DNA from: a phage
Reading direction: 5' to 3' (one strand)
Sequence record: NC_100372.1
DNA length: 64,000 bases
The stretch's first letter is position 1, and every line of letters starts with the position of its first letter. Under the pieces are notes generated by a model, which made no database searches, was not told the DNA's origin, and worked only from the letters and a program-made list of their open reading frames with translations. The position numbers and the translations under genes are program-made. Below, piece by piece: positions 2,491-19,104 of the stretch.

Positions 2491-2516
2491 AATAGAAAAT
2501 CCCCGCCGAAGCGGGG
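2491..2516 (-). terminator. intrinsic terminator-like hairpin (RNA CCCCGC-UUCG-GCGGGG then U-rich tract)
   Basis: Perfect 6-bp GC stem with UUCG tetraloop on the minus-strand transcript followed by AUUUUCUAUUU; lies between stop of 2530..2910 and the RBS of 1980..2480. Confidence 0.5.
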
Positions 2517-2529
2517 TGTGTCTTAGAAA

Positions 2530-2910
2530 TTAATCGTAGTGTGCCAAAATCTCTCCATCGTTGCAAGTCCCCTCTACGAAGTTGTGAAGATTCATGCATT
2601 CATCTTGATAGAAGAATTTACCGCTTTTCAGCCGTAGACCAAACAACTCCGCATCTCCACGATGGCAAGCCTCTACAAGTTCATAGATTTCATACGGTAA
2701 CTCTCCATCGTCATGGAAGAACCCCGCTTTATCGTTGACATAGATGAAGAAATAGTCACTGCTGTCGCAAGCGTCCAGTATTTTAAACCAGATTTCATCC
2801 ACATCTTTTTCTCGGATATCGATCACACAAGTGGAGCTGCATTCGTACTCCTTCTCCGGCTCCTCGGTCAATACCACCAAGTAGTTTCCCCGCTTACCTA
2901 CTTTAGCCAT
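2530..2910 (-). CDS. hypothetical protein
   Basis: 126 aa ORF, tightly packed in the minus-strand early operon; no recognisable motif. Confidence 0.45.
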   Translation of the reverse strand: MAKVGKRGNYLVVLTEEPEKEYECSSTCVIDIREKDVDEIWFKILDACDSSDYFFIYVNDKAGFFHDDGELPYEIYELVEACHRGDAELFGLRLKSGKFFYQDECMNLHNFVEGTCNDGEILAHYD

Positions 2911-2919
2911 ACAACCTCC

Positions 2920-4104
2920 TCAAGCTTTAGCTAAAATGGCGCTAAACTCTTCACCAAACTCTTTTACAATCTTCATCAGGTTTGGGTATGCTTTGATCAG
3001 CTGAGCAACGATCTTGTCCCTGCCTTTACCAATAAGTAAGGCATTTCCTAAGGCGTTAGGTTTCATCATCGCCATAAAGACTGAGAATACAAAGTCTCGG
3101 TTCTCATCCTTGAAATTTTCCCAAAGGAAATCAAGGAAGTTTGCCACACAGCTGACAAGATCTTCGTCGGAGATACTTGCATTTTCCATCATATTACGAA
3201 TAGCGATACAACCTTCTGACCCCAGAATCCACAAGATGTCTGGCTGCTTAGGACCTACATATTCTTTGCAGCCTCCTGCCATAATCCGACCGATTTCTGG
3301 CAAGTTTCGTTTCTTGGTGTGGTAGGTCCAAATTTCTACCGCTGCAGTGTGACCAATTGCACCTTGTAGAAGGACACGGGCCATAGCGTCAGAAATAATA
3401 CCGCTGTCAAAATCGTGCAGGATGTCAGATGCAGCAACCCAAGATCGCGGTGTGGCAAAAGATGGACAATTAATCTCAGCCATGGCCTCATAATTATCAA
3501 TGGCTGATGGGACTCTTTTCAGATATCCAATTACAGAGGAGTGAACCCCATTAAGGAATGCGTAGTCCTCAATAAACACCTCTGCATTGCTTGTAACTTC
3601 TACAATAATAAAGCGGTTAGCTAGAGGAGCTTCGAGCGCCGAAAGAACAGCACCATCTGTAGCACGGTTACCTGCAGCTACAAAAACAGAACCCTTAGGA
3701 AATGCATAGGTACCGCACTTGTGGTCGAGCATAATTTGCATTGCAACCTTCTGCAGGTAGTTATCCGCATGAGTAAGCTCGTCTAGAAAGATAATTCCGC
3801 TCCAGTCCGGATCTGCAGGCCAAAATTCTGGAATTGCAAACACTGTACGTGTAGTCCCATCCGACTCCACAGGGATAGGCAGTCCAGATAAGTCAGCAGG
3901 ATCTTTATCTGACAACCGCACGTCAACCAGGTTGTCATCTCGCTCACCGAACATATTATCAGCAATCTGCTTCATCACCTGGCTCTTCCCCACACCCATC
4001 GGTCCTAAAATCAGGACAGATCGATTATGACGCTGGGCAAATTGAATAATAGCTGGCAACTCGCGGACAGTGATTTGACCACTTTCGAATACGTTTCTTG
4101 ACAT
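2920..4104 (-). CDS. MoxR/CobS-like AAA+ ATPase
   Basis: 394 aa. Walker A GPMGVGKS, Walker B-like IIFLDELT; size and layout fit MoxR/CobS-family AAA+ proteins. Confidence 0.65.
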   Translation of the reverse strand: MSRNVFESGQITVRELPAIIQFAQRHNRSVLILGPMGVGKSQVMKQIADNMFGERDDNLVDVRLSDKDPADLSGLPIPVESDGTTRTVFAIPEFWPADPDWSGIIFLDELTHADNYLQKVAMQIMLDHKCGTYAFPKGSVFVAAGNRATDGAVLSALEAPLANRFIIVEVTSNAEVFIEDYAFLNGVHSSVIGYLKRVPSAIDNYEAMAEINCPSFATPRSWVAASDILHDFDSGIISDAMARVLLQGAIGHTAAVEIWTYHTKKRNLPEIGRIMAGGCKEYVGPKQPDILWILGSEGCIAIRNMMENASISDEDLVSCVANFLDFLWENFKDENRDFVFSVFMAMMKPNALGNALLIGKGRDKIVAQLIKAYPNLMKIVKEFGEEFSAILAKA

Positions 4105-4373
4105 TAGTAAAAGTCCTCTACTTGTGTGTAAGTGTTTTCAAAGTTTTCCAAAACAGACATCACATCGGATCTGTCAATATCATACGCAACTCTCCAGCCA
4201 TATGCAACCCTTTCTGCTGTTGCCTCTTCTGGCGCTAGTCGTCTGCTGGCATAAAAGAGTGTTGGAGTACACTTTCTTGCTTGCCCTCTAACTTTCCCAT
4301 AATAATATCTGTGAATATCTTTGTCAAAATTTAATTCTTTTTCTGCACGAAGTTCGTACTGCTGGTATAACAT
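4104..4373 (-). CDS. hypothetical protein
   Basis: 89 aa ORF, 1-nt overlap with downstream ATPase gene, same operon. Confidence 0.4.
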   Translation of the reverse strand: MLYQQYELRAEKELNFDKDIHRYYYGKVRGQARKCTPTLFYASRRLAPEEATAERVAYGWRVAYDIDRSDVMSVLENFENTYTQVEDFY

Positions 4374-4417
4374 CTCTACTGCTCCTTAAGCAGCATCCTT
4401 GCCGCCATCCCTACCCA

Positions 4418-4798
4418 CTAAAATGCAGTCCGAATCCAGACAAGGTTCTTATCTGCCCAATCATAGAGGCAAGTCATTGCACTATTGAATTGCTCACACG
4501 GAGGATAATCTTCTTCCATCTTGCGCATAGCAGAGCCTTGTGGGTAAAGCTCCCGTGCTGCAAACCACGCGTCGTAGTCATCAACGGTATCGAAGTAGTA
4601 TACAACCTCCTCCAACTCAGGATCGAACTTTGAACTATCAGGATCCAGCTGTTCAGGGAACTTGGAGCGTAACTTGCCAGCCACAATACTTGCCAACTCG
4701 CTAACATGCTTGTTGTCCCACTCTACCAGTTTCCCGTCTTCAGTTATGCGTCCTAACCACTGATCATGAAGGTCAACTGTTGTCTTCCACTGGGCCAT
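4418..4798 (-). CDS. hypothetical protein
   Basis: 126 aa ORF, acidic, in operon context. Confidence 0.45.
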   Translation of the reverse strand: MAQWKTTVDLHDQWLGRITEDGKLVEWDNKHVSELASIVAGKLRSKFPEQLDPDSSKFDPELEEVVYYFDTVDDYDAWFAARELYPQGSAMRKMEEDYPPCEQFNSAMTCLYDWADKNLVWIRTAF

Positions 4799-4800
4799 TA

Positions 4801-5058
4801 TCAGTCTACCTCTTCTTCTCGTTGCAGTTCAAGATACCCATAGGTCTGGATATCTTCAAAGGTGTGGAACTCTCCATCTGCCGCTAAGGCACGGACAACC
4901 TGGCATAGAGTTTTATAAGGTACTTTCTCCAAACCCAGATTCAGCGCAGGAAAAACCTTATCTAAGTCAACAAAATATACAAACTGTAGCTCACCAGTTT
5001 CAAAAGGCGTATCTTCGATAAACATCTTCTCGGCATTAGTTAAGATTTGCACTTTCAT
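4801..5058 (-). CDS. hypothetical protein
   Basis: 85 aa ORF in operon context. Confidence 0.4.
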   Translation of the reverse strand: MKVQILTNAEKMFIEDTPFETGELQFVYFVDLDKVFPALNLGLEKVPYKTLCQVVRALAADGEFHTFEDIQTYGYLELQREEEVD

Positions 5059-5414
5059 TATTCTGCCTCCTCTTCTTTTTCTTCAGCATTAGTTTCAGTA
5101 CCACCCCACTCTGGAGTTTCCACCTCGACAGTAAACTCACGCACTACACGGTAATTGCCCATGAAGCGCTCCACTTCTTCAAGGCTTATGGAGAGGCCAT
5201 TGGCAACCAAGTCTGCAGCACCCTTCTCTACCAGGTAGTCCAGATTGGCTTCCAAGGCTTCAGGCTCAAACCCTGTCAATGCAATCATATAACCTTCCCC
5301 TTCATCAGGGAGGGCAATACAGCCCAACTGATTTTCTTTAAAAAAGCAGTGACCATCACTATTGATTGGTTGCTCATTGCAGTAAATAGCTGCACGATAA
5401 GTAACTTTAGACAT
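5058..5414 (-). CDS. hypothetical protein (acidic C-terminus)
   Basis: 118 aa ORF. Its first 24 nt (ATGTCTAAAGTTACTTATCGTGCA) are repeated exactly, in inverted orientation, inside the plus-strand gene at 7257-7280. Confidence 0.5.
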   Translation of the reverse strand: MSKVTYRAAIYCNEQPINSDGHCFFKENQLGCIALPDEGEGYMIALTGFEPEALEANLDYLVEKGAADLVANGLSISLEEVERFMGNYRVVREFTVEVETPEWGGTETNAEEKEEEAE

Positions 5415-5426
5415 TGATAGGCCTCC

Positions 5427-5705
5427 TTAGGCAACTGTCATTTTACATTCTTGAAATTTTAGCACAAGACGGTGATTGTGTCTAGTGTCTAAAAAGATTT
5501 TTTCAACCATCAGGCACACGGTATAACCGTCTGTCTTGTTGACAACAAAATCCCCAGGGTGAGGGAGAATGTCCCCAGGATTGGGGAAACATAACCCGCT
5601 CAAGAAGGCATCATCGGTGGTGGACTTAATGGATTTCCACACACTATCTGCCTGAACATTCTCACCAACATAATATACACTACCACATGACTTCATCATA
5701 GTCAA
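5427..5705 (-). CDS. hypothetical protein
   Basis: 92 aa ORF; 4-nt overlap with upstream gene. Confidence 0.4.
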   Translation of the reverse strand: MTMMKSCGSVYYVGENVQADSVWKSIKSTTDDAFLSGLCFPNPGDILPHPGDFVVNKTDGYTVCLMVEKIFLDTRHNHRLVLKFQECKMTVA

Positions 5706-6601
5706 ATCTCCGCGTAAATTAAACTGGAATCAGTATACTTCTTTAGTGGGTAAATATCCTGTCCATAGATGCCGTCATTAAACACCTCATCTACCCAAAG
5801 GCTACACTTATATCCCATCATCTCTAAAACACCCATCTCTTCTTCGGTAAACTTATCACCGCTCTTGCAAGATGTCAACACCTCATTCTGTACTCTTGCT
5901 ACCTCGAAGCGATTATTGGCAATATCGCTATTGGCGATCAAATACTCACCTAAAGGGTGTGCGGCATTAAAGATGCACAGTGGGCGGTTGACGTAATAGT
6001 CTCCAGGTGTATAAAAATTATTGAGGTCTTTCACTAGGACATTCTTATCAGTCACTTCATTTATAACATCATGCATATCGCACATCTTTATATGTTTGAG
6101 GATTCCATCCCCCATCACAAAATAAAAACTTGCTGAGACACTCTCGGCATAGATCTTACTAGATCCGTTGTAGTTGTATTTTACTCGGATGCTAACGGGG
6201 GTTTTTCCTGTCGCGTTAGCCATCATCCAAAGAAATGGCAGCTCATACTTCTCCTCTGAGGAAACAAAAGGTGAAGTTGCCAGAGATCGGAAACCTCCAG
6301 AGAAGTTGAAAGTTACAGAACCGCTCCGGCGGTATGATACTGCGTATTCCACTTTTATATCAACATATCCGTTGGAGTAAGTATGCCCTCCATTATCAAG
6401 GTATGTCCACTTATCTGACCCAGATACCAACCTCCGCTCAATTACCTTCATCACTACAGGGATTAGCGGATTAGTACAAACCGATTTTGAAGTAGCTTTA
6501 TCATCCAAAGCCTCGTAAATTGCAGAAAGGATATCACCTGCTGAGAGATTGGTTGTGATATCTTGTTTCCACCTGGTGCTAAAACTGTTAAGATTTGCCA
6601 T
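5702..6601 (-). CDS. hypothetical protein
   Basis: 299 aa ORF, first gene after the minus-strand early promoter; SD AGGAG about 9 nt upstream of ATG. Confidence 0.5.
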   Translation of the reverse strand: MANLNSFSTRWKQDITTNLSAGDILSAIYEALDDKATSKSVCTNPLIPVVMKVIERRLVSGSDKWTYLDNGGHTYSNGYVDIKVEYAVSYRRSGSVTFNFSGGFRSLATSPFVSSEEKYELPFLWMMANATGKTPVSIRVKYNYNGSSKIYAESVSASFYFVMGDGILKHIKMCDMHDVINEVTDKNVLVKDLNNFYTPGDYYVNRPLCIFNAAHPLGEYLIANSDIANNRFEVARVQNEVLTSCKSGDKFTEEEMGVLEMMGYKCSLWVDEVFNDGIYGQDIYPLKKYTDSSLIYAEI

Positions 6602-6641
6602 GAGTAAGTGCTCCTATGTTAGTTTTCTTTTGAATGGGTGC

Positions 6642-6670
6642 ACTATATCTGGGATTTAGAGTAAAGTCAA
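6642..6670 (-). promoter_or_regulatory. sigma70-like promoter, minus strand (TTGACT-17-TATAGT)
   Basis: On minus strand: -35 TTGACT (plus 6665-6670), 17-nt spacer, -10 TATAGT (plus 6642-6647); positioned upstream of 5702..6601. Confidence 0.5.
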
Positions 6671-6683
6671 CACGTTTTTGAGG

Positions 6684-6712
6684 TTGACATCTACCCAGGC
6701 GCTTGGTAAGAT
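6684..6712 (+). promoter_or_regulatory. sigma70-like promoter, plus strand (TTGACA-17-TAAGAT)
   Basis: -35 TTGACA 6684-6689, 17-nt spacer, -10 TAAGAT 6707-6712; back-to-back with the minus-strand promoter. Confidence 0.5.
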
Positions 6713-6743
6713 TTCTCCACCTACAGAGAACAAGAGACAACTC

Positions 6744-7721
6744 ATGAATCTTGAAAAATATTATACACCAGAAGAGTTAGAGCGCTTGCTCAAAAAATAC
6801 AGACGCAAACAGAATAACGCACGGAAACGGGATATAGAGTTCAACCTGTCATGGGAAGAATATCTCCTATTTGGTAAAAAACTTTTAGGAGAGGGAGTAT
6901 GCGACTATACCCTTATACCTTTCGACATGCACACAGATGAAAACGGACTGGGAAATCCTTTCTACCCATCTCTAGAGCGGATAGATGATGAAGGTCCTTA
7001 CGCAATTGATAATTGTTGTGTGGTAGGATTGAGGTGCAACTCTCTGAAGGACTGTCTGGTAGATAAAAAGACTGCAGTCTTGATTAAAGACGAAACTGAT
7101 CGAAAAATTGTCCAGCAGATGATGCTCCACCTGAGCGAAGAGCGTATGGAGAAATTGAAAGGTGATTATACTTTTGAAGATTTCATCTTGCAATATGGAA
7201 CGGAAGAGGATAAACTAGCACTCTTTGACGAAGAAGAGGAGGAAGATATGCTACCTATGTCTAAAGTTACTTATCGTGCACCCAAGAAGCACATTTCTGA
7301 CATTGTAAACGAACCTATCACAGAAGAGATTGAAGAAATGACGCAACAGGTACATGAAGAGGAAAAAGAGACTCAGGAGGTCGAAGAGGGGCTTACAGAA
7401 GAGGTTCCTGCACTACCTGATGATGTTGAGATTGCCAAAGCTTACACCTTCTATTGTCAAACGTTCTACGATGTAGGCATGAAAGTTGATCTGTCGTTCA
7501 GCCAATTTAAGAGCACATACATTCGAAAATGTTGTGCTTTAACTGGTGAGCGTCTCGGGGCCGGACTTAAACCACTATTAGTTACCGACTGGAACAAAGG
7601 TTTCACCAAAGGTAACTTCATGGTGGTATCTCCAATCATGGAAAAAGCTATGACAGACCTTATGAAGACCACCCGCATGACAATGACCGAGTTGGCTGGT
7701 ATTTTCAAGCACGTTAAATAA
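6744..7721 (+). CDS. protein with two degenerate HNH-like (HNH_3-type) modules separated by an acidic linker
   Basis: Track ORF 6678..7721 starts at TTG inside the promoter; ATG at 6744 (MNLEKYY) is the likely start. Module 1: ARKRDIEFNLSWEEY ... CDYTL ... SLERIDDEGPYAIDNCCVVGLRCNSLK; module 2: CALTGERL ... VTDWNKGFTKGNFMVVSPIMEKA. The His of the S-I-D-H-I-D consensus is Arg or absent. Confidence 0.45.
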   Translation: MNLEKYYTPEELERLLKKYRRKQNNARKRDIEFNLSWEEYLLFGKKLLGEGVCDYTLIPFDMHTDENGLGNPFYPSLERIDDEGPYAIDNCCVVGLRCNSLKDCLVDKKTAVLIKDETDRKIVQQMMLHLSEERMEKLKGDYTFEDFILQYGTEEDKLALFDEEEEEDMLPMSKVTYRAPKKHISDIVNEPITEEIEEMTQQVHEEEKETQEVEEGLTEEVPALPDDVEIAKAYTFYCQTFYDVGMKVDLSFSQFKSTYIRKCCALTGERLGAGLKPLLVTDWNKGFTKGNFMVVSPIMEKAMTDLMKTTRMTMTELAGIFKHVK

Positions 7722-7725
7722 TGAC

Positions 7726-7742
7726 AGGGGCCATTGGCCCCT
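7726..7742 (+). other. GC palindrome / stem-loop (GGGGCC-ATT-GGCCCC)
   Basis: Perfect 6-bp GC stem between 6744..7721 and 7755..9215; no clean U-tract follows. Near-identical to the stem of the terminator at 13437-13452. Confidence 0.35.
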
Positions 7743-7754
7743 TCTGGAGTTTTA

Positions 7755-9215
7755 ATGGATAGCAGAAGTTCAGAAATCATTACCGCACAAAAAGATGATG
7801 CCTTGCGAATGCTGCAGGCCGCTCGCATGTATCTTCTTGAAAAGCTGCCGTTTTATGGCACACTGTTGTCAGGGTTGCAGTTCGTAGAAAACCACACATG
7901 GTGCTCCACTATGGCAACAGACCATAAACGCATCTACTACAGCCCTGAGTTCATTATGGGGTTGGCAGATGAGCGTAAAACCATTCTTAAAGCATCTCTG
8001 ACTGACAAGCAGTTTGAGATGGCTGAGGTTTTCTATTCCCCAAAATCTGTGAAAGAGGTGGCATTTCTTCTGTCACATGAGGTGGGGCATATTATCTGTG
8101 ATCATCTGGTCCGTGGTAAAAGCTTTGAGCCGGAACTGTTCAATATTGCTTGTGATCACGTTATCAACACAGGTCTTGTGGTTGACTTTAGCAAGCCTCC
8201 TTGTGTTTTCTTCCCGAAGGGGAAAAGCACTGAGTTCGTAAAAGGTAAGCCTTTTGGCTTCTTAGCTAATTGCTACTGCGACATGAAGTTTCATGGATGG
8301 ATTGCTGAGAACGTCTATGCAGTTCTTGATAAACAAAGAGATCAGAATGGCGGTAAAAGTAAGAACGGTAAAGGTGAGAACTCCCAAGGAGATAAACGAC
8401 AAACCGATGATCACATGAGCGGGAACGGTGGCACTAGTGATGATCTTGGAAAGGCTATGGGGTATGATCAGCCGCAACCAGTAATCAGTCAATCTGATAA
8501 AGATCAGGCCATGCAGGATTCTGGTGACATGTTGGAAGCAGCAATGCAAGCTTCAGGAGGTCGTTGCCCCGAGGCGGTGCGCGAGTTTGTCAAAAACAGA
8601 GGCAAGCCTGTAATCAATTATATAGATATTATTAAGCAACGTATGTTATCTAAAAGAAAGGCTGAGTTAACCTACAGAAAACCTGGTCGCCGATCTGGGT
8701 CTTTGACCACCACAATGCGAAAAGTTGGAGCTATAAACAAGAATCAACACGTTATTGTTCCTGGTCGTAATCCGGAAAACACTATAGATATTGTAGTGGC
8801 TTTAGACGTTTCTGGGTCGATCTCACAAAGAACTTTAAAGAAAATGTTCAATGAGATCACCGGGTTGTGCAATCTGTATAAAGAGTTTAAGGTTACGATG
8901 TTCTGTTGGTCAACCGAGGTTGGAGAGGTTAAAGTATACACTCGCGGTAACATCGATGAGATGATCAACTATGAGGTCCACTCAACATGGGGCACAACAG
9001 CCGCCTGCGTGTTCGAGTATCTAGATGCTAACATACCGAATGCAAAAGATGTCATCGTCCTTACCGACCTCTACTTTGAGCATAACTTTGAACAAAAGGC
9101 TGTTGACAACAAGTGGAAAAAGTACGATACTTTATGGGTTCTCACCGAAGGGTATAATAAAAATTATATCCCGAGCTTTGGGAAAACTGTGGAATTAATC
9201 GAGTACGCTAAGTAA
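7755..9215 (+). CDS. vWA-domain protein with N-terminal HExxH metallopeptidase-like domain
   Basis: Track start 7734 is TTG; ATG at 7755 has SD GGAG 5 nt upstream. HEVGH motif (LLSHEVGHIICDH) in N-terminal half; MIDAS-like DxSGS (IVVALDVSGSIS) in C-terminal half; Gly/Asp/Ser-rich linker between. Confidence 0.6.
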   Translation: MDSRSSEIITAQKDDALRMLQAARMYLLEKLPFYGTLLSGLQFVENHTWCSTMATDHKRIYYSPEFIMGLADERKTILKASLTDKQFEMAEVFYSPKSVKEVAFLLSHEVGHIICDHLVRGKSFEPELFNIACDHVINTGLVVDFSKPPCVFFPKGKSTEFVKGKPFGFLANCYCDMKFHGWIAENVYAVLDKQRDQNGGKSKNGKGENSQGDKRQTDDHMSGNGGTSDDLGKAMGYDQPQPVISQSDKDQAMQDSGDMLEAAMQASGGRCPEAVREFVKNRGKPVINYIDIIKQRMLSKRKAELTYRKPGRRSGSLTTTMRKVGAINKNQHVIVPGRNPENTIDIVVALDVSGSISQRTLKKMFNEITGLCNLYKEFKVTMFCWSTEVGEVKVYTRGNIDEMINYEVHSTWGTTAACVFEYLDANIPNAKDVIVLTDLYFEHNFEQKAVDNKWKKYDTLWVLTEGYNKNYIPSFGKTVELIEYAK

Positions 9216-9230
9216 GAGAGGATGGTATTT

Positions 9231-9488
9231 ATGGCAACAGAGGTAGTAATTAAAGCTGAACGCCCAGTTAAAAAAGCTATCAACACGTTCCCTGTAGGAA
9301 CCATTGTGAGCATGATTACAGAGTCAGGCCGTGTATCTACACTGCTAATCGTGAAATCTGCATGCTCATCTTGTGTGTGGGCATACGATCTTGACGAGAA
9401 AGAACTGAAAGATTTTGTCGGGGAGCTGAAAGCAACAGAGCTTGACGCTCGTATCGAAGTATTTGGTGAAACTATGGAGGAAGAGTAA
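9231..9488 (+). CDS. small protein, member 1 of a tandem paralogous family
   Basis: Second ATG (9231) has better SD spacing than track start 9222. Shares Cys position and C-terminal E-I-x-V/I-F/Y pattern with the next two ORFs. Confidence 0.45.
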   Translation: MATEVVIKAERPVKKAINTFPVGTIVSMITESGRVSTLLIVKSACSSCVWAYDLDEKELKDFVGELKATELDARIEVFGETMEEE

Positions 9489-9751
9489 TGACTACAAAAA
9501 TCACCATTGCAGAACCAAAAGCTAACACGCAACCTATCGAAAAGTTTAAATGCGGTGAGGTGGTAACATTCACACCAGATAATGAAGATGCCAAGATTTT
9601 TGCCATGGTCACAGCCGAGTGGATGTGTGACAATACCACACAGGTGCTGCGTTTTGACACCTATCTTACAGATGAAATCAGGAACGACAAGATCGTGACT
9701 GGTGTGGATACTGAGATTATTTTCTACAAGAGCTTTTTAGAGGGTTTCTGA
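9488..9751 (+). CDS. small protein, member 2 of a tandem paralogous family
   Basis: 87 aa; ATGA overlap with upstream gene; KFxxGEVV ... C ... EIIFY pattern. Confidence 0.5.
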   Translation: MTTKITIAEPKANTQPIEKFKCGEVVTFTPDNEDAKIFAMVTAEWMCDNTTQVLRFDTYLTDEIRNDKIVTGVDTEIIFYKSFLEGF

Positions 9752-13470: not shown

Positions 13471-16400
13471 TTAAAGAGAGAAAGTCGCGTAGGCTCCCAG
13501 ACGATACTGCTGGTCACCAGGGAACATAACACCTATAGAGGCTGTCCCTAGAATCCTGCCTTCCTTTCCAGACTCCATTCTGAACCCTACCCATCCGGAA
13601 CTCCTTGCAGCCTCGATGTTGTCGCTATACCCAAAAGTGGCAAGCTCGTCAACACCAGCTCCAAACAGCAACTGAAGCTGACTTCTCGGAAGCCCTATAA
13701 TTTCAGGAATATATGCACCAAAGTACACCATCTGCCCTACCTTAGGACCGCTGCCGTACTCCATCGGCTTGCTTGTAGAGAAAGTCTTCATACCAGAAGT
13801 CCCTGCCGGATTAGGGTATGCCCCGTTTGTTGCTGTGCCTATCCACATTCTCCACTGAGGTGCCATCTGTCTGACAGTGAAAGATGTTGAAGACGTTTTG
13901 CGGCCTGCATCATCCGTAACTACAAACTTTATAGTGACATTACCAGGGGCTTTAAATGTTACCAATCCTGTGGTAGCATCCACTGTTGCAATGTTAGTAT
14001 TACTACTTTCCCAAGTCTTTCTAATCCCTGGCACATTGGAAGGGGTAATAGAAGGTTCCTGCATCTGCAGTTTACCGCCCACAATCCCTATGCCGTTACC
14101 TGGATTATACAACGCACCAACTTCATCTACAATGTTACCTGCCTTGAGGCTGTACTTTTTAGAGAAGTTGTAAGTGCCGTTATATGCGTGTGTCCCTGAG
14201 AAGGTTACATCTGCCTTGCCGTTGGAGATGCAAACCAAAGCATACTTCCTGTCAGGCAACTGTGCCCCAGTTTCTGGGTGAGTTTTACCCACCTGGAACA
14301 CGCTCGGGTCAGTAGAGTCGTGGCTATCACTAACAGAGCTTGGACCACCCATCAACTGTGACAAGCAATTCCTTACCCATGTCCAGTTATTGTCACTGGA
14401 GAAGTCTACAGTCAAATCAAACACAACCCACTCATTTGGCTTCCACACAGGTGTTGTGATCAACTTACCAACACCCCCACCCTGAAGGGTAGGAGATTGT
14501 TCAGTGATCAAGGCAGAGTATGCCAGAGTTCCCAACTGCATAGTCTGGCTTGCTGTTCTCACTACCTTAGAATCAGCATCTGTGAAGTTGTTGATGATCT
14601 GGAATGTGCCATAAGTGTTTTTACAGGTAATTCTGGCATTCAGTGTATCAATCTTTCTCACATCTGCCATGGCAGTGTTAGACACAGAGAAGTCAGAAGC
14701 TTTAGCTGAGTTTGCTGCAACAGCCGGATCAACGTTGAGGGTTGCGTTGAACTGGCAGGCAGGAGTAACCAGTAGCTTGTTATCACCTATTTGCTTCCAT
14801 GAAACACTTTGAACAGGGAGATTCCATTTAATACCTGAGAAAACTTTAGCAACCCTTGGTCCCAAAGCTCCAGTTCTGTTGTCTTTACAACACATAGACA
14901 TGGTGATTGTTGACGGAGTGGCCTGACCAAACAATTGCTGGGCTTTTGCAGAGGACATAGTGTAGAAATTGTCCTTAACAAACTCATCAGCTGCTAACGA
15001 TCCGTCAGATCTCCACCATTGTACCTGGTACCCTGTCTTATCCCAGCCACCAACCTGCTTTAAGTCCTCCCAAGAGATTTCCAAATCCCCCGTGGTAGGG
15101 TTGATTGCCGCAGTTCCCGGTGTTCCAGATGACCATATTGGTATATCGAACCACGCTGGCTTAACAGACTGCACTGCGTTAGGGCCTATTGCAGCAGCAA
15201 GTTGTTGACCCATCAATACGCGAGCATCTTTCACCAGACCCCACTCGATCATGGATCCGGAGTAACCCTCTTTCTTATACGCGGATGACCCATTCAAGTG
15301 AATAAGTCTACTTGTGCCGAAGTTATGTGCTCCACCGCCGTTGTCGTCTGCAAAATTGGTTATGATTCTATCCCTGATGTTTTTCCATGCCCTGCCCCCA
15401 ATCTCGTAGTCATGGTCATAACATCTTTGCAGCGTTGTCCAGCAAATGATCGCCATCCTTCTGCCGTTACTGAAGCCAAAAGCCTGATCGTTAAGCTCTC
15501 TCCACAAATAGCAGTTAGTGGTCCACATAGCTCTGTGAATGTTGAACCAGTTTATAGACTTGGCTGAGTTATCCCACTGAGTCCCAGGTAATTCAGGCCA
15601 CACTGCATTAACCAGCATGTCTTCTGTTCCTGCATCAACCAAGAACCCTCTTACCTTTTTACCCATGCCTACCCTGTCTTTTGCAATCCAACTGCCAAAC
15701 AATCTCAGTTTTGGACCGTAAACAACATCTTCCGGATGCTCAAAAGAGACATACTTCAGATATACTGTAGGGTCACCATAGGTGCCATCACAAACAGCTT
15801 TGTGCATGTTCTCGCCAAGGTCTAGACGAAGTCCTGTTACAACTTTTGACGTGTCGGTGAATTTGTCTGTTAAATCAAATTCATACCACCACCAACCTGC
15901 ACCCAACAATACCTTCTTACAACGCTGCGCATCTGTATCAGATATTCTCTTATCTCCTGAAAAAGGTGAGTCAGCAAACTGATAGTGCAGAGCAATTTCA
16001 AAAGGATGTGTGGAGGTCCCGTTTTCTGCAAGGACTTGTTTACCTATTAAGTCACACTTAATAATCATCACAACACGTTTGTACCCATTTGTTACTGGGA
16101 TCTGCATAGACATAGATGTCCCGTCCATGTTTGATCTCAGCGCAGTCATGATGATATAAGGATCAACGGCATTACCAAGAGTTTCAGGCCCTGGAATTAT
16201 CTTATACTTCTTAACCTGCCCCATGATGTAATCACTGGCGTAAGTTGCAGCCTCGAAGCAAGATCCCCCGTTAGGCAGTTCCCCTGGCCCCCAGAAAAAT
16301 GCGCCATAACAGTTATAAAACCACTTGTTAGGGTCGTATTTGTTCTTGAAGGTCTGAACCTCGTTGGCCTGTTTTGTCAAGAAAACCTGCGTATCTGTAA

Positions 16401-19104
16401 AGATTGCAGGGTTTACTCTTGACTGTCGATTAGCATACCCGGTTTGGTTAAACCATTGATTGCAAGAGTAATCCCTCATATAATCGTAATCAGAGTATTT
16501 GTTTGCATCCTCGTTCCAACACATGTTGAGGTTGGTGCCGCCCATGCATACAATATATTCTTCAACGTATTTATCACTTCGAGTGGGAATTCCTATGAAC
16601 CATCTGTTAACAGGCTCGTCCCAAGCGGTACGTTCATCTTTAACGCAGATTGCAATCCAGTCATGTGTCCCTGTTTTCTTGCACACATCCCGTTTCATAC
16701 CGTAGTAGAATTCTTTGGTATTTGGCTCAGGTGCGCTTATCAGGTAGCTCCACGCTTGGTCTGCATAGGTTCCGTCAGTGCGTGGGTCGTGATCAAAGGC
16801 GTACATGATGATCCTTTCCCCGCCAAGATGTTCACCAAGAGTAACTTTGATGTTCACATCCCCGTAACCGTTGCGAACAACATCCATATTATCAATAGAA
16901 ATACCTCTAGGAGTGTAGGCAATTTTCAGCGAGTTATCCTCACTGGTGCCCCCAAGTGTAATCCCTATGTTGTTTGTTGTCCCGTCGGCATATCTTACTG
17001 TGGCTTCCCAGCGTATTCCGAAATATCCTGCATCATGGCTGACAATTTTCAGTGTACGAGCACCTGGGTGAGGTTTTCCAGGATCAGGCCAAGGGTCTGG
17101 GTGTTCGTGGACAGTCAACGACGTTCCGTTTTGCTCGTTAACCTGCAACATTTTACCACCTCTGCCGTTAGGGTTGAACTCCCATACGGCCTGTGTCTGC
17201 ACTAAGTTGTTGTAGGTATTTCGTCTCTGATCATAAATCTCTTGGGTAACATCATAGGTGACTGATCCAGCATCCATTCTGTGGAGTCGGACCATATACG
17301 ATGTATCTCCTTCTACCGCAGGCTGAGTCCCATTCAGCCCGAAGTATACAGTATCGTTAACATGGAACTGCTTGTTTCTACCAACGGTATGCCACTTACC
17401 GTCAGAAGGATACGCAGGAACTATGGTGTTCCAGTTCAAAGTCCTTGTCGTGTGAGTTCTTCCTGTGCCATGCTTGTCATGATAGGTTATTTTTACAGAG
17501 TACAGGCCACGTCTGTTAACATTCCTGTTATACTGAGTAACAACAACTTCGTTGGCCCCGCCGTGGTTCCAGTTGGTGGAGAATTGGTAATTTGCATCTG
17601 TAACAACCGTACCCGCAGCATTTACCAGTTCAATCTTGTCAATAATGAACGTAGCCCCCTCTGGCTGAGGCTTCAATTTCATCTTGACCGTGTCACCAAT
17701 GTAAATATTGCTAACGCTGCTAACACCGTTAACGTCAAAAATATCATCAACACCCCAACTGTCTACTGGGACATTTTTATACCAATTCTCAGGAACCTCT
17801 GTGAACCCCTGACTATTAAGTCTGCCGCCAAACAGGTTGTTAGAGCCTGCAAAACTTCCCCTTGGGATGCCTGACCACCAAAGTTTACCATTAACAACAG
17901 TAAAGGTACCTAAAAAACCTTCTCTGTGAATGCCTTGGAAATAAACACTCTCTGTCCAGCTAACTGGGAGGCGTTGCTCAACGTATTTGGCTGTGGCAAG
18001 AGCTTGATAGTGGATAAAATTGGCCCTAGGGTTATTGTTTGCAGATTGTGCGCCAATATCATTACATAAGTTGCGAGAGAATCCGCGATACTGCTTAGTG
18101 CCATTATTGAAGAAAATGCCACTTGTTCCGTACCCACGAGCCATTATTACTTCATGGGTGTAGGTAATATTTAAGGAACGCCATGTATCATCTCCCCAGA
18201 CATCTTGCCCGTAGAATACGTTAACAAGCTGCTGGTCATTGGGCTTATGCATCCGCTGTGTAACAACCACTGCCCCGTTCGGACCGCACATGAACCCTTT
18301 CCACTCCTCGTCTGCAGGAATGCCTCTCAAATCGTCACGGGTAACCTGAGCAGGAGGCCAAACGAGAGTGTTTCTACTATTATTCCTCAGAAAGTCATAT
18401 CCAGCAATCCAGAAACCTCTAGGGCCACCGAAAATAACAGAGTTATCATGCACCTCGCAGTTAATGCTTGGGTTTTTCCAAGGACCTGTTTCAGGATTTT
18501 CTGATGTTTCACCAATCTTTACAGGAGTTGCATGCTGGTTTTTATCTACATGCAAAGATCCGTAGGTGTTGTTACCAGATCCATACAGGTTCAGTATGCC
18601 AGTGCCTTCTGCCTCTGCAATAACCCAAACAGTGTTGTTAATACCACCCATCACCTCAACAAGGCGCTCTGGGTGCGTGTCAAGGTGTAACCCTTTAACA
18701 ATCTGTTCAGGAAGAGGTGTCCACTCGTTTACGCAAACATCGTTACCACCTGCCGCAGTGGATCCGATAAGACCTGCAGTGCAGCCAATGTAGAAAAACT
18801 GGTTATCAAAAGTCCGGATCACAAACGCACGGTCTGCTCTCCACACATGATCAACATTCCAGGCTGTCTCGCTCGGGTAGTTTATAGGGCTACGATCCCC
18901 CGTGCGACACTCCCCGAACTTGTTATAGCCAGTAATATTAAGCTGACCATCGTCAAAAAGTATAGCTAAGCTATTTACATAAGCTACTGTAGTGCTTGTA
19001 CCGTCACTGTTGTCTATTGGGTATGACAGAACAGCAAGTTCCTTAACTCCACCCCTCTTATCGAGGAAATGACGACCAAGTTTTAGCAAAGGGATTGGAA
19101 GCAT
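13471..19104 (-). CDS. very large tail fibre / tail-associated protein with RCC1-like and Ig-like regions
   Basis: 1877 aa. N-terminal region has repeated G-rich beta-propeller-like repeats (LYGSGNNTYGSLHV); C-terminal region has Big_2-like segment (GNVTIKFVVTDDAGRKTSSTSFTV). Last gene of the late module. Confidence 0.5.
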   Translation of the reverse strand: MLPIPLLKLGRHFLDKRGGVKELAVLSYPIDNSDGTSTTVAYVNSLAILFDDGQLNITGYNKFGECRTGDRSPINYPSETAWNVDHVWRADRAFVIRTFDNQFFYIGCTAGLIGSTAAGGNDVCVNEWTPLPEQIVKGLHLDTHPERLVEVMGGINNTVWVIAEAEGTGILNLYGSGNNTYGSLHVDKNQHATPVKIGETSENPETGPWKNPSINCEVHDNSVIFGGPRGFWIAGYDFLRNNSRNTLVWPPAQVTRDDLRGIPADEEWKGFMCGPNGAVVVTQRMHKPNDQQLVNVFYGQDVWGDDTWRSLNITYTHEVIMARGYGTSGIFFNNGTKQYRGFSRNLCNDIGAQSANNNPRANFIHYQALATAKYVEQRLPVSWTESVYFQGIHREGFLGTFTVVNGKLWWSGIPRGSFAGSNNLFGGRLNSQGFTEVPENWYKNVPVDSWGVDDIFDVNGVSSVSNIYIGDTVKMKLKPQPEGATFIIDKIELVNAAGTVVTDANYQFSTNWNHGGANEVVVTQYNRNVNRRGLYSVKITYHDKHGTGRTHTTRTLNWNTIVPAYPSDGKWHTVGRNKQFHVNDTVYFGLNGTQPAVEGDTSYMVRLHRMDAGSVTYDVTQEIYDQRRNTYNNLVQTQAVWEFNPNGRGGKMLQVNEQNGTSLTVHEHPDPWPDPGKPHPGARTLKIVSHDAGYFGIRWEATVRYADGTTNNIGITLGGTSEDNSLKIAYTPRGISIDNMDVVRNGYGDVNIKVTLGEHLGGERIIMYAFDHDPRTDGTYADQAWSYLISAPEPNTKEFYYGMKRDVCKKTGTHDWIAICVKDERTAWDEPVNRWFIGIPTRSDKYVEEYIVCMGGTNLNMCWNEDANKYSDYDYMRDYSCNQWFNQTGYANRQSRVNPAIFTDTQVFLTKQANEVQTFKNKYDPNKWFYNCYGAFFWGPGELPNGGSCFEAATYASDYIMGQVKKYKIIPGPETLGNAVDPYIIMTALRSNMDGTSMSMQIPVTNGYKRVVMIIKCDLIGKQVLAENGTSTHPFEIALHYQFADSPFSGDKRISDTDAQRCKKVLLGAGWWWYEFDLTDKFTDTSKVVTGLRLDLGENMHKAVCDGTYGDPTVYLKYVSFEHPEDVVYGPKLRLFGSWIAKDRVGMGKKVRGFLVDAGTEDMLVNAVWPELPGTQWDNSAKSINWFNIHRAMWTTNCYLWRELNDQAFGFSNGRRMAIICWTTLQRCYDHDYEIGGRAWKNIRDRIITNFADDNGGGAHNFGTSRLIHLNGSSAYKKEGYSGSMIEWGLVKDARVLMGQQLAAAIGPNAVQSVKPAWFDIPIWSSGTPGTAAINPTTGDLEISWEDLKQVGGWDKTGYQVQWWRSDGSLAADEFVKDNFYTMSSAKAQQLFGQATPSTITMSMCCKDNRTGALGPRVAKVFSGIKWNLPVQSVSWKQIGDNKLLVTPACQFNATLNVDPAVAANSAKASDFSVSNTAMADVRKIDTLNARITCKNTYGTFQIINNFTDADSKVVRTASQTMQLGTLAYSALITEQSPTLQGGGVGKLITTPVWKPNEWVVFDLTVDFSSDNNWTWVRNCLSQLMGGPSSVSDSHDSTDPSVFQVGKTHPETGAQLPDRKYALVCISNGKADVTFSGTHAYNGTYNFSKKYSLKAGNIVDEVGALYNPGNGIGIVGGKLQMQEPSITPSNVPGIRKTWESSNTNIATVDATTGLVTFKAPGNVTIKFVVTDDAGRKTSSTSFTVRQMAPQWRMWIGTATNGAYPNPAGTSGMKTFSTSKPMEYGSGPKVGQMVYFGAYIPEIIGLPRSQLQLLFGAGVDELATFGYSDNIEAARSSGWVGFRMESGKEGRILGTASIGVMFPGDQQYRLGAYATFSL

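Follow-up and report, generated by a model that had tools for sequence, protein, structure and literature searches.

A split pair of MoxR ATPase and von Willebrand factor A genes, with a predicted metallopeptidase domain, in a Vequintavirus

Two genes near the beginning of a 64,000-nucleotide (nt) stretch of phage DNA from the sequence record NC_100372.1, which as a whole is called the window hereafter, are the subject of this report. One of them, at 2920..4104 on the minus strand, encodes a MoxR-class AAA+ ATPase of 394 amino acids (aa). The other, at 7755..9215 on the plus strand, encodes a protein of 486 aa that consists of a zincin-like (HExxH) N-terminal domain, a linker, and a C-terminal von Willebrand factor A (vWA) domain with a metal ion-dependent adhesion site (MIDAS). 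Both open reading frames (ORFs) lie where a first-pass annotation of the window had placed them, on opposite strands and in divergent transcription units with their starts 3650 nt apart, and each is single-copy within the window. Along its whole length, the segment 2500-9500 shares 95-98% identity with more than 100 sequenced Vequintavirus genomes, such as rV5, FV3 and S127 BCL3, and its FV3 counterpart occupies almost identical coordinates (2500-9512). Judged from this identity, the source phage, with a genome of about 137 kb, is a Vequintavirus, namely an rV5/FV3-like coliphage. By gene order, the ATPase corresponds to rV5 gp4 and the vWA protein to rV5 gp12, and they are homologues of gp24 and gp25, respectively, of N4 and G7C.

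The assignment of the 2920-4104 product to the AAA+ ATPases of MoxR class, already proposed in the first-pass annotation, is borne out by motifs and fold, and hexamer formation and ATP hydrolysis are predicted for it. The protein matches phrog_1297 at 1e-110, far beyond chance, and its catalytic motifs are invariant in alignments of 14 and 57 sequences: Walker A GxxGxGKS (G37-S41), Walker B D108-E109, sensor-1 N146, R164 of the ANRF motif, and sensor-2 P219-R220, which read GPMGVGKS, FLDE, AAGN, ANRF and TPRS in the window. When single sequences were searched against the PDB, the ATPase had matches to P-loop proteins only and the vWA protein had no match, and profiles were therefore required; the family profile matched AAA domains of Midasin at 2e-14. 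The AlphaFold2 (AF2) model of the ATPase, with a predicted local distance difference test (pLDDT) score of 85.8, has NorQ (9qhg, 9qh4 and 9qh8) and CbbQ2 (6l1q) as its top Foldseek matches in the PDB. Since these are the nearest solved structures, and since CobS and CobT families are not found among the Pfam or NCBIfam matches at E values up to 0.1, the label "CobS-like" that had also been given to the ATPase is not supported. Searches of NCBIfam and PADLOC gave no meaningful matches. In Pfam, AAA_5 reaches 16.9 bits on the window ATPase, below its gathering cut-off of 22, and AAA_3 is absent from the list, while thousands of ATPase homologues of about 360 aa (around 35% identity) bear AAA_3/AAA_5 (PF07726/PF07728). 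Thus, of the Pfam domains expected at first for the two proteins, AAA_5 stays below threshold in the ATPase of the window itself, whereas those of the vWA protein are recovered above their cut-offs, as described below.

The vWA gene starts with an ATG, five nt upstream of which a GGAG is found. Its product carries HEVGH at residues 108-112, and DUF2201_N (1e-28, 101.1 bits against a gathering cut-off of 23.2) is followed by DUF2201 (3.5e-11, 43.8 bits against 26.4), so that the earlier description of the partner as a vWA protein whose N-domain is zincin-like and bears HExxH is sustained. In an alignment of 39 homologous sequences, whose identity goes down to 21%, both Pfam domains are present in every member. 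H108, H112, D134 and N138 are invariant, E109 and H117 are shared by at least 90% of the sequences, and the MIDAS is complete and likewise invariant (D351-x-S353-x-S355, T414 and D438). The Glu of HExxH is the general base in zincin peptidases. As a third metal ligand, either the invariant D134 or H117 is a candidate. In the AF2 model (pLDDT 82), the N-terminal part forms an alpha/beta domain with the HExxH motif on a helix (residues 99-114) behind a three-stranded sheet, and it is followed by a disordered linker rich in Gly, Asp and Lys (200-228), a basic helical region, and then a minimal vWA fold. A fold search with this model found vWA structures, including NorD and the MIDAS domain of Midasin. 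The Vequintavirinae proteins have clade-specific insertions, which bring them to about 486 aa in comparison with about 390 aa in N4-like phages.

Are these two genes, which are separated in the window, really partners? In the 80 IMG/VR loci encoding a vWA homologue that were surveyed over a range of 10 kb, an ATPase homologue lies within that distance of the vWA gene in 75. In 65 loci the ATPase gene precedes the vWA gene in the same orientation, the gap having a median of 464 nt and not exceeding 300 nt in 28 of them, and in the other ten the two genes are divergent with a gap of 3.5-5.2 kb; these ten are exactly the loci closest to the window (at least 39% identity). The remaining five loci are without an ATPase gene; two of these duplicate one another, and another one is located at the edge of its contig. 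The order of ATPase and then vWA in adjacent positions is also seen in uncultured phages, in Certrevirus, which is itself a genus of Vequintavirinae, in RaK2, in gp24/gp25 of G7C, in a 578-kb megaphage, and on a Paracoccaceae chromosome where no phage genes are nearby. Among complete phage genomes, numbers of records by genus run parallel for the two proteins (812 for the ATPase and 625 for the vWA protein). Along a series of Vequintavirinae, they diverge in step, with ATPase/vWA identities of 99/100, 72/62, 51-53/43-47, 43/39-43 and 35-39/33-37%; this correlation is informative only within the series, being saturated among distant loci (Spearman 0.12). From this gene order and co-occurrence, the ATPase and vWA genes are regarded as a cognate pair, and the functional pairing that the first-pass annotation had assumed, together with the co-occurrence in related genomes it had expected, stands: adjacency is conserved in most other phages and one bacterium, and it is in the window that the pair is split.

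Because the adjacent, co-directional order prevails elsewhere and divergence is limited to the nearest loci, which belong to Vequintavirus/Seunavirus-type lineages only, the split is, on comparative grounds, derived and lineage-specific. A layout of this kind would result if the upstream part of an ancestral operon had simply been inverted. The ATPase gene, the vWA gene and an Srd-like gene between them are the only genes kept in every split relative compared, while their neighbours in this region turn over fast. In other lineages, small ORFs occur between the two genes, and these were considered as a third component and rejected, being lineage-specific and having no homologue in the window. 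They comprise two unrelated families, one of about 97 aa with conserved Cys and Trp in 13 loci (L024 9547-9840, L030 6030-6323, L063 9571-9867 and ten more), and another of about 100 aa with a hydrophobic N-terminus in six (L027 9602-9904 and five more).

The Srd-like gene, at 6744..7721 on the plus strand, belongs with anti-sigma factors and sigma70 decoys according to its matches to phrog_1400 (Srd anti-sigma) and phrog_4592 (decoy of sigma70), and rV5 gp11 has been described as an Srd homologue (PMC3606486). In every split relative compared, an Srd-like gene is located upstream of the vWA gene, the protein matches being 55 to about 1170 nt apart (L007 8939-9946, L010 8693-9484, L011 7932-8831 and L015 8218-9090), whereas none is found near the pair in the relatives compared that have the adjacent arrangement (Certrevirus, L002, L016 and L017). 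The rearrangement may be marked by the arrival of this gene, which probably shares a transcript with the vWA gene.

Transcription of the two units can be read, to some extent, from the intergenic region 6601-6744, where a pair of sigma70-like promoters matching the consensus is found on both strands (6642..6712). The leftward one is TTGACT-17-TATAGT (minus strand, 6670-6642), and the rightward one is TTGACA-17-TAAGAT with an extended -10 TG (plus strand, 6684-6712). Bidirectional promoters between rV5 genes 10 and 11 were reported by Kropinski et al. (PMC3606486). In the leftward unit the ATPase gene takes seventh place, and in the rightward unit the vWA gene comes second, after the Srd-like gene and a hairpin. 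The first-pass annotation had put both genes behind near-consensus sigma70 promoters, which needs correction for the vWA gene: the rightward promoter fronts the Srd-like gene, to which it really belongs, the vWA gene follows about 1 kb further downstream behind the hairpin, and immediately 5' of it the best promoter-like match is just 9/12. The ATPase gene may have an additional promoter of its own, since a site with an 11/12 match to the consensus (TTGACA-17-TATTAT; minus strand, 4299..4327) exists about 195 nt upstream of its start, and in L007, whose ATPase is 72% identical, an 11/12 site is present at the equivalent position (6651-6623). The site resides within an 89-aa ORF (4104-4373, minus strand), to which the ATPase gene is translationally coupled, its ATG start overlapping the stop codon of that ORF (TAATG). 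PHROG 13164 and GenBank label this ORF "ATPase", yet no ATPase domain is detectable in it, and since its conservation is limited to close relatives, it was left out of the module. The GC-rich hairpin lies at 7726..7742 on the plus strand between the stop codon of the Srd-like gene and the vWA start (AGGGGCC-AUU-GGCCCCU, -14 kcal/mol). It is not significantly more stable than shuffled sequences (z -1.3), and a canonical T-tract is not present there; hairpins of other sequence are found at the equivalent position in L007 (9969-9988) and L010 (9957-9982). It might serve as an attenuator or affect the stability of the RNA. In rV5, the units of genes 10-1 and 11-26 hold the ATPase and vWA genes, and the late genes are 27-66 (PMC3606486). 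N4 gp24 and gp25 are middle transcripts (PMC4193335).

How widely is the pair distributed? The family amounts to 33,719 clusters at 50% identity (E <= 1e-3). gp24 and gp25, the latter being a vWFA protein, belong to the 14 genes that make up the core of N4-like phages (PMC4193335), and the pair is present across Vequintavirinae and RaK2-type jumbo phages as well. When 295 flanking ORFs from 57 non-redundant viral loci were scanned with Pfam, no capsid, portal or tail family was found among them, and the recurrent neighbours were ThyX, ThyA, DHFR, MazG, DNA ligase and homing endonucleases. On the 578-kb metagenomic contig (L088, 62-10591), the pair is within a proteostasis cluster with ClpX, ClpS, ClpP and Hsp20, along with ribosomal protein S21; the ATPase of this contig has an insertion, and profiles match it in two pieces. 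A scan of bacterial genomes with a single bacterial protein recovered its own contig only. Such deep, core-like conservation suggests a function that the phage needs for its own development and not an accessory, host-specific weapon, and the genomic context of the pair favours an early or middle, non-structural role.

What, then, do these two proteins do? The results above show which domains the two proteins have, that catalytic and MIDAS motifs are intact in them, and that their genes form a conserved pair with a derived split; beyond this, we infer physical interaction of the two proteins, proteolysis, and the timing and target of their action as follows. The two genes would encode two halves of one machine, a phage version of the cellular MoxR/DUF2201 operon, and we consider this explanation, with its target-cleaving mechanism and its core function included, moderately probable. 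If NorQ-NorD, CbbQ-CbbO and Midasin are taken as models, the ATPase would form a hexameric ring onto which the vWA protein docks, the MIDAS of the latter might capture an acidic residue on a specific target protein, and ATP hydrolysis could then remodel the complex of adaptor and target. Finally, the fused HExxH zincin-like domain would cut the target or the adaptor itself. In the lineage of the window, a rearrangement may have assigned the ATPase gene to the leftward unit and the vWA gene, behind the Srd-like gene, to the rightward one; since both genes flank one bidirectional sigma70-type promoter region, they would still be made in the same pre-late phase. Most likely, such ATP-driven, MIDAS-targeted remodelling and cleavage would take place early or in the middle of infection.

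Several points weigh against this explanation. As for the peptidase, no solved peptidase fold was matched by the N-domain, the vWA domain having dominated both fold searches, and one of the 39 homologues is without the catalytic Glu (HAVCH). With hhalign, HEVGH is placed on the catalytic HEMGH of E. coli LoiP with a probability of 53% (E 1.4e-4), and an alignment of 87 columns puts it on HELAH of SprT with a probability of 36%, both of which are weak; correspondingly, weak Peptidase_M48 matches are seen in 16 of the 39 members and SprT-like matches in three. Because of the weakness of these matches and of the unmatched fold, the N-domain is predicted to be a metallopeptidase as a likely, not a proven, assignment. 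Moreover, NorQD, CbbQO, RavA-ViaA and Midasin are remodellers or metal inserters and not proteases, so that proteolysis by the phage pair is not guaranteed. Early expression of both genes in the window is read from consensus motifs, and the two products would have to keep interacting after their genes were split. No experimental study of any member of the family (DUF2201, COG3864 or phage vWA/metallopeptidase) was found in the literature; in the main text of the CRISPRi-ART paper, gp24, vWA or MoxR are not matched, and the sole gp25 there is an unrelated gene of PTXU04.

Another possibility is that the pair is an accessory weapon for counter-defence or host takeover, by which a protein of host immunity or housekeeping is destroyed early in infection, possibly together with the Srd-like sigma decoy. 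A targeted protease would suit such a role. The genes are in non-late units driven by sigma70 promoters, in a region that also has rIIA/rIIB and the Srd-like anti-sigma gene, which accompanies the vWA gene in all split lineages compared, and the flanking region is highly variable, like anti-defence islands. It is the surroundings that vary, however, and the pair is the conserved anchor of the region; a conserved anchor amid fast turnover is a pattern unlike typical accessory anti-defence genes. In addition, the pair is part of the 14-gene N4-like core, and spans unrelated phage families, hosts, and even a bacterial chromosome in a non-prophage context; relatives with the adjacent arrangement have no Srd-like neighbour; and neither a significant match in PADLOC (weak P-loop matches, E >= 5.6e-4) nor a link to VMAP-type conflict systems was found. 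We thus regard a weapon of this kind as unlikely. Still less probable seems a chaperone for virion assembly that also processes structural proteins by proteolysis, as was proposed for the jumbo-phage pair by Iyer et al. 2021 (PMC7824862). In RaK2, the pair is indeed directly downstream of annotated virion structural genes. On the other hand, the genes are outside the late and structural units both here and in N4, the survey of 295 flanking ORFs met neighbours such as ThyX, MazG, DNA ligase and homing endonucleases and no capsid, portal or tail family, and gp4 and gp12 are absent from the virion proteins named in the main text of the rV5 paper (PMC3606486). The weakest candidate, a chaperone like NorQD, CobST, BchID or CbbQO that matures a metalloenzyme of the phage or host, for example in nucleotide metabolism, with HExxH holding the metal, would fit with NorQ and CbbQ as the nearest solved structures, with metal insertion by NorQD and chelatases, and with the recurrent linkage to genes for ThyX, ThyA, DHFR and dCTP deaminase, but is very improbable given that the Glu of HExxH is conserved in at least 90% of sequences, that the motif aligns with the catalytic motifs of M48 and SprT, and that no specific client enzyme co-varied with the pair in the neighbourhood survey.

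If the favoured explanation, namely a two-part machine that remodels and cleaves a target, is taken a step further, the pair might be a site-specific protease, powered by ATP and directed by its MIDAS, that several large families of virulent phages (N4-like, rV5-like and RaK2-type jumbo) need before late expression. Its single conserved target, of the host or the phage, might be one whose cleavage licenses DNA replication or host shut-off, and in the rV5 lineage the protease may work with the Srd-like decoy. This extension is speculative, and we give it only a small chance of being correct as a whole; if true, it would represent a broadly conserved, hitherto unrecognised step of phage development.

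The discovery reported here is modest, because the architecture, the pairing and a functional proposal were already published, and near-identical genomes are already so annotated: GenBank records label the ATPase gene "MoxR ATPase", and the vWA gene "putative metallopeptidase domain", "VWA-like domain-containing protein" or, wrongly, "HNH endonuclease". What is added is that the separated Vequintavirus genes are recognised as a pair of the N4 gp24/gp25 type, that they were separated secondarily, in coincidence with an Srd-like gene, and that their context speaks for a function before the late phase. The module is among the few genes common to otherwise unrelated virulent phage families, and the equivalence of rV5-type and N4 genes gives two tractable E. 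coli phage systems for finding its substrate. The main value of the analysis is as a pointer to an uncharacterised core function of phages. It also corrects the "HNH endonuclease" label of the vWA protein, in which no HNH domain is detectable. This mislabel is widespread, being found in PHROG 1314 and in many GenBank records such as those of NHEP1, RaK2 and PVP-SE1. A note in the RaK2 record states that the label was taken over from an ORF of a Roseovarius phage, and in G7C a true HNH homing endonuclease, gp24.1, sits between gp24 and gp25.

Some other observations were made on database records and on the window. Sixteen GenBank records named "Campylobacter phage" (MG065666, MG065655 and 14 others; host Campylobacter jejuni) are about 97% identical to the region, which suggests mis-assignment of the host or contamination of the submissions. 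An "ATP-binding protein [Escherichia coli]" at NCBI is 86% identical to the phage ATPase and comes from contigs of 46 kb or less; it is probably phage sequence in a bacterial assembly. Where the rightward early unit of the window ends, an ORF of 1877 aa (13471-19104, minus strand) opens the next, oppositely oriented unit, and PQ014731, a related record, annotates its product as an Ig-like domain-containing protein.

Lastly, the pair is to be compared with systems that have been described before. MoxR-vWA-VMAP and bpMoxR conflict systems likewise have a MoxR ATPase and a vWA protein, and in the ternary MoxR-vWA-VMAP systems of Kaur et al. 2020, the vWA component occasionally carries a fused peptidase domain (PMC7159879). 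These systems are carried by the host, whereas the module in the window is carried by a virus. The kinship with nucleoside triphosphate-dependent conflict systems of this kind, to which the first-pass annotation had appealed, found no support: the bpMoxR score of the ATPase in Pfam is 15.9 bits against a cut-off of 27, a VMAP or beta-propeller third component is found neither in the window nor in related loci, and PADLOC gave no significant match. NorQ-NorD and CbbQ-CbbO resemble the phage pair in fold, with sequence identities of just 16-20%. The NorQ hexamer grips the VWA domain of NorD and remodels its linker by twisting it (PMC13036017), and NorQD and chelatases are metal inserters. Compared with these, the phage ATPase is extended by a C-terminal helical domain of about 125 aa, NorD and CbbO do not have the HExxH domain of the phage vWA protein, and the pore "finger" insertion of NorD is not evident in the secondary structure of the vWA model.

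Closer likeness is found among phages and in cellular operons. Iyer, Anantharaman, Krishnan, Burroughs and Aravind (2021) described a MoxR-vWA pair with an N-terminal metallopeptidase in group 2.2 jumbo phages, and proposed virion assembly as its role, after the model of the MoxR-vWA system for tail assembly in Acidianus two-tailed virus (PMC7824862). It is the same kind of pair with the same fusion, and RaK2- and PBECO4-type phages match both proteins of the window when these are used as queries; here, the pair is split in a genome of about 137 kb and is surrounded by genes that are early or belong to nucleotide metabolism, not by structural genes. Bacterial operons of MoxR with DUF2201_N/DUF2201, the latter named "predicted metal-dependent peptidase" by JGI (Joint Genome Institute), have the same gene order and the same Pfam domains in a cellular, non-prophage context, for example at a locus (L087) of a Paracoccaceae metagenome-assembled genome. 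The closest counterpart is the pair of N4 and G7C. N4 gp24 is homologous to the window ATPase with 27% identity (E 2e-21), G7C gp24 matches the ATPase profile at 1.7e-48, and G7C gp25 is 23% identical to the window vWA protein over 86%. The domain architecture is shared, and both pairs are in non-late units. In N4-like phages the two genes are adjacent and co-directional, with the HNH insertion in G7C, while in the window they are divergent and 3.65 kb apart. By homology and architecture, the pair in the window is thus the same module as gp24/gp25 of N4.

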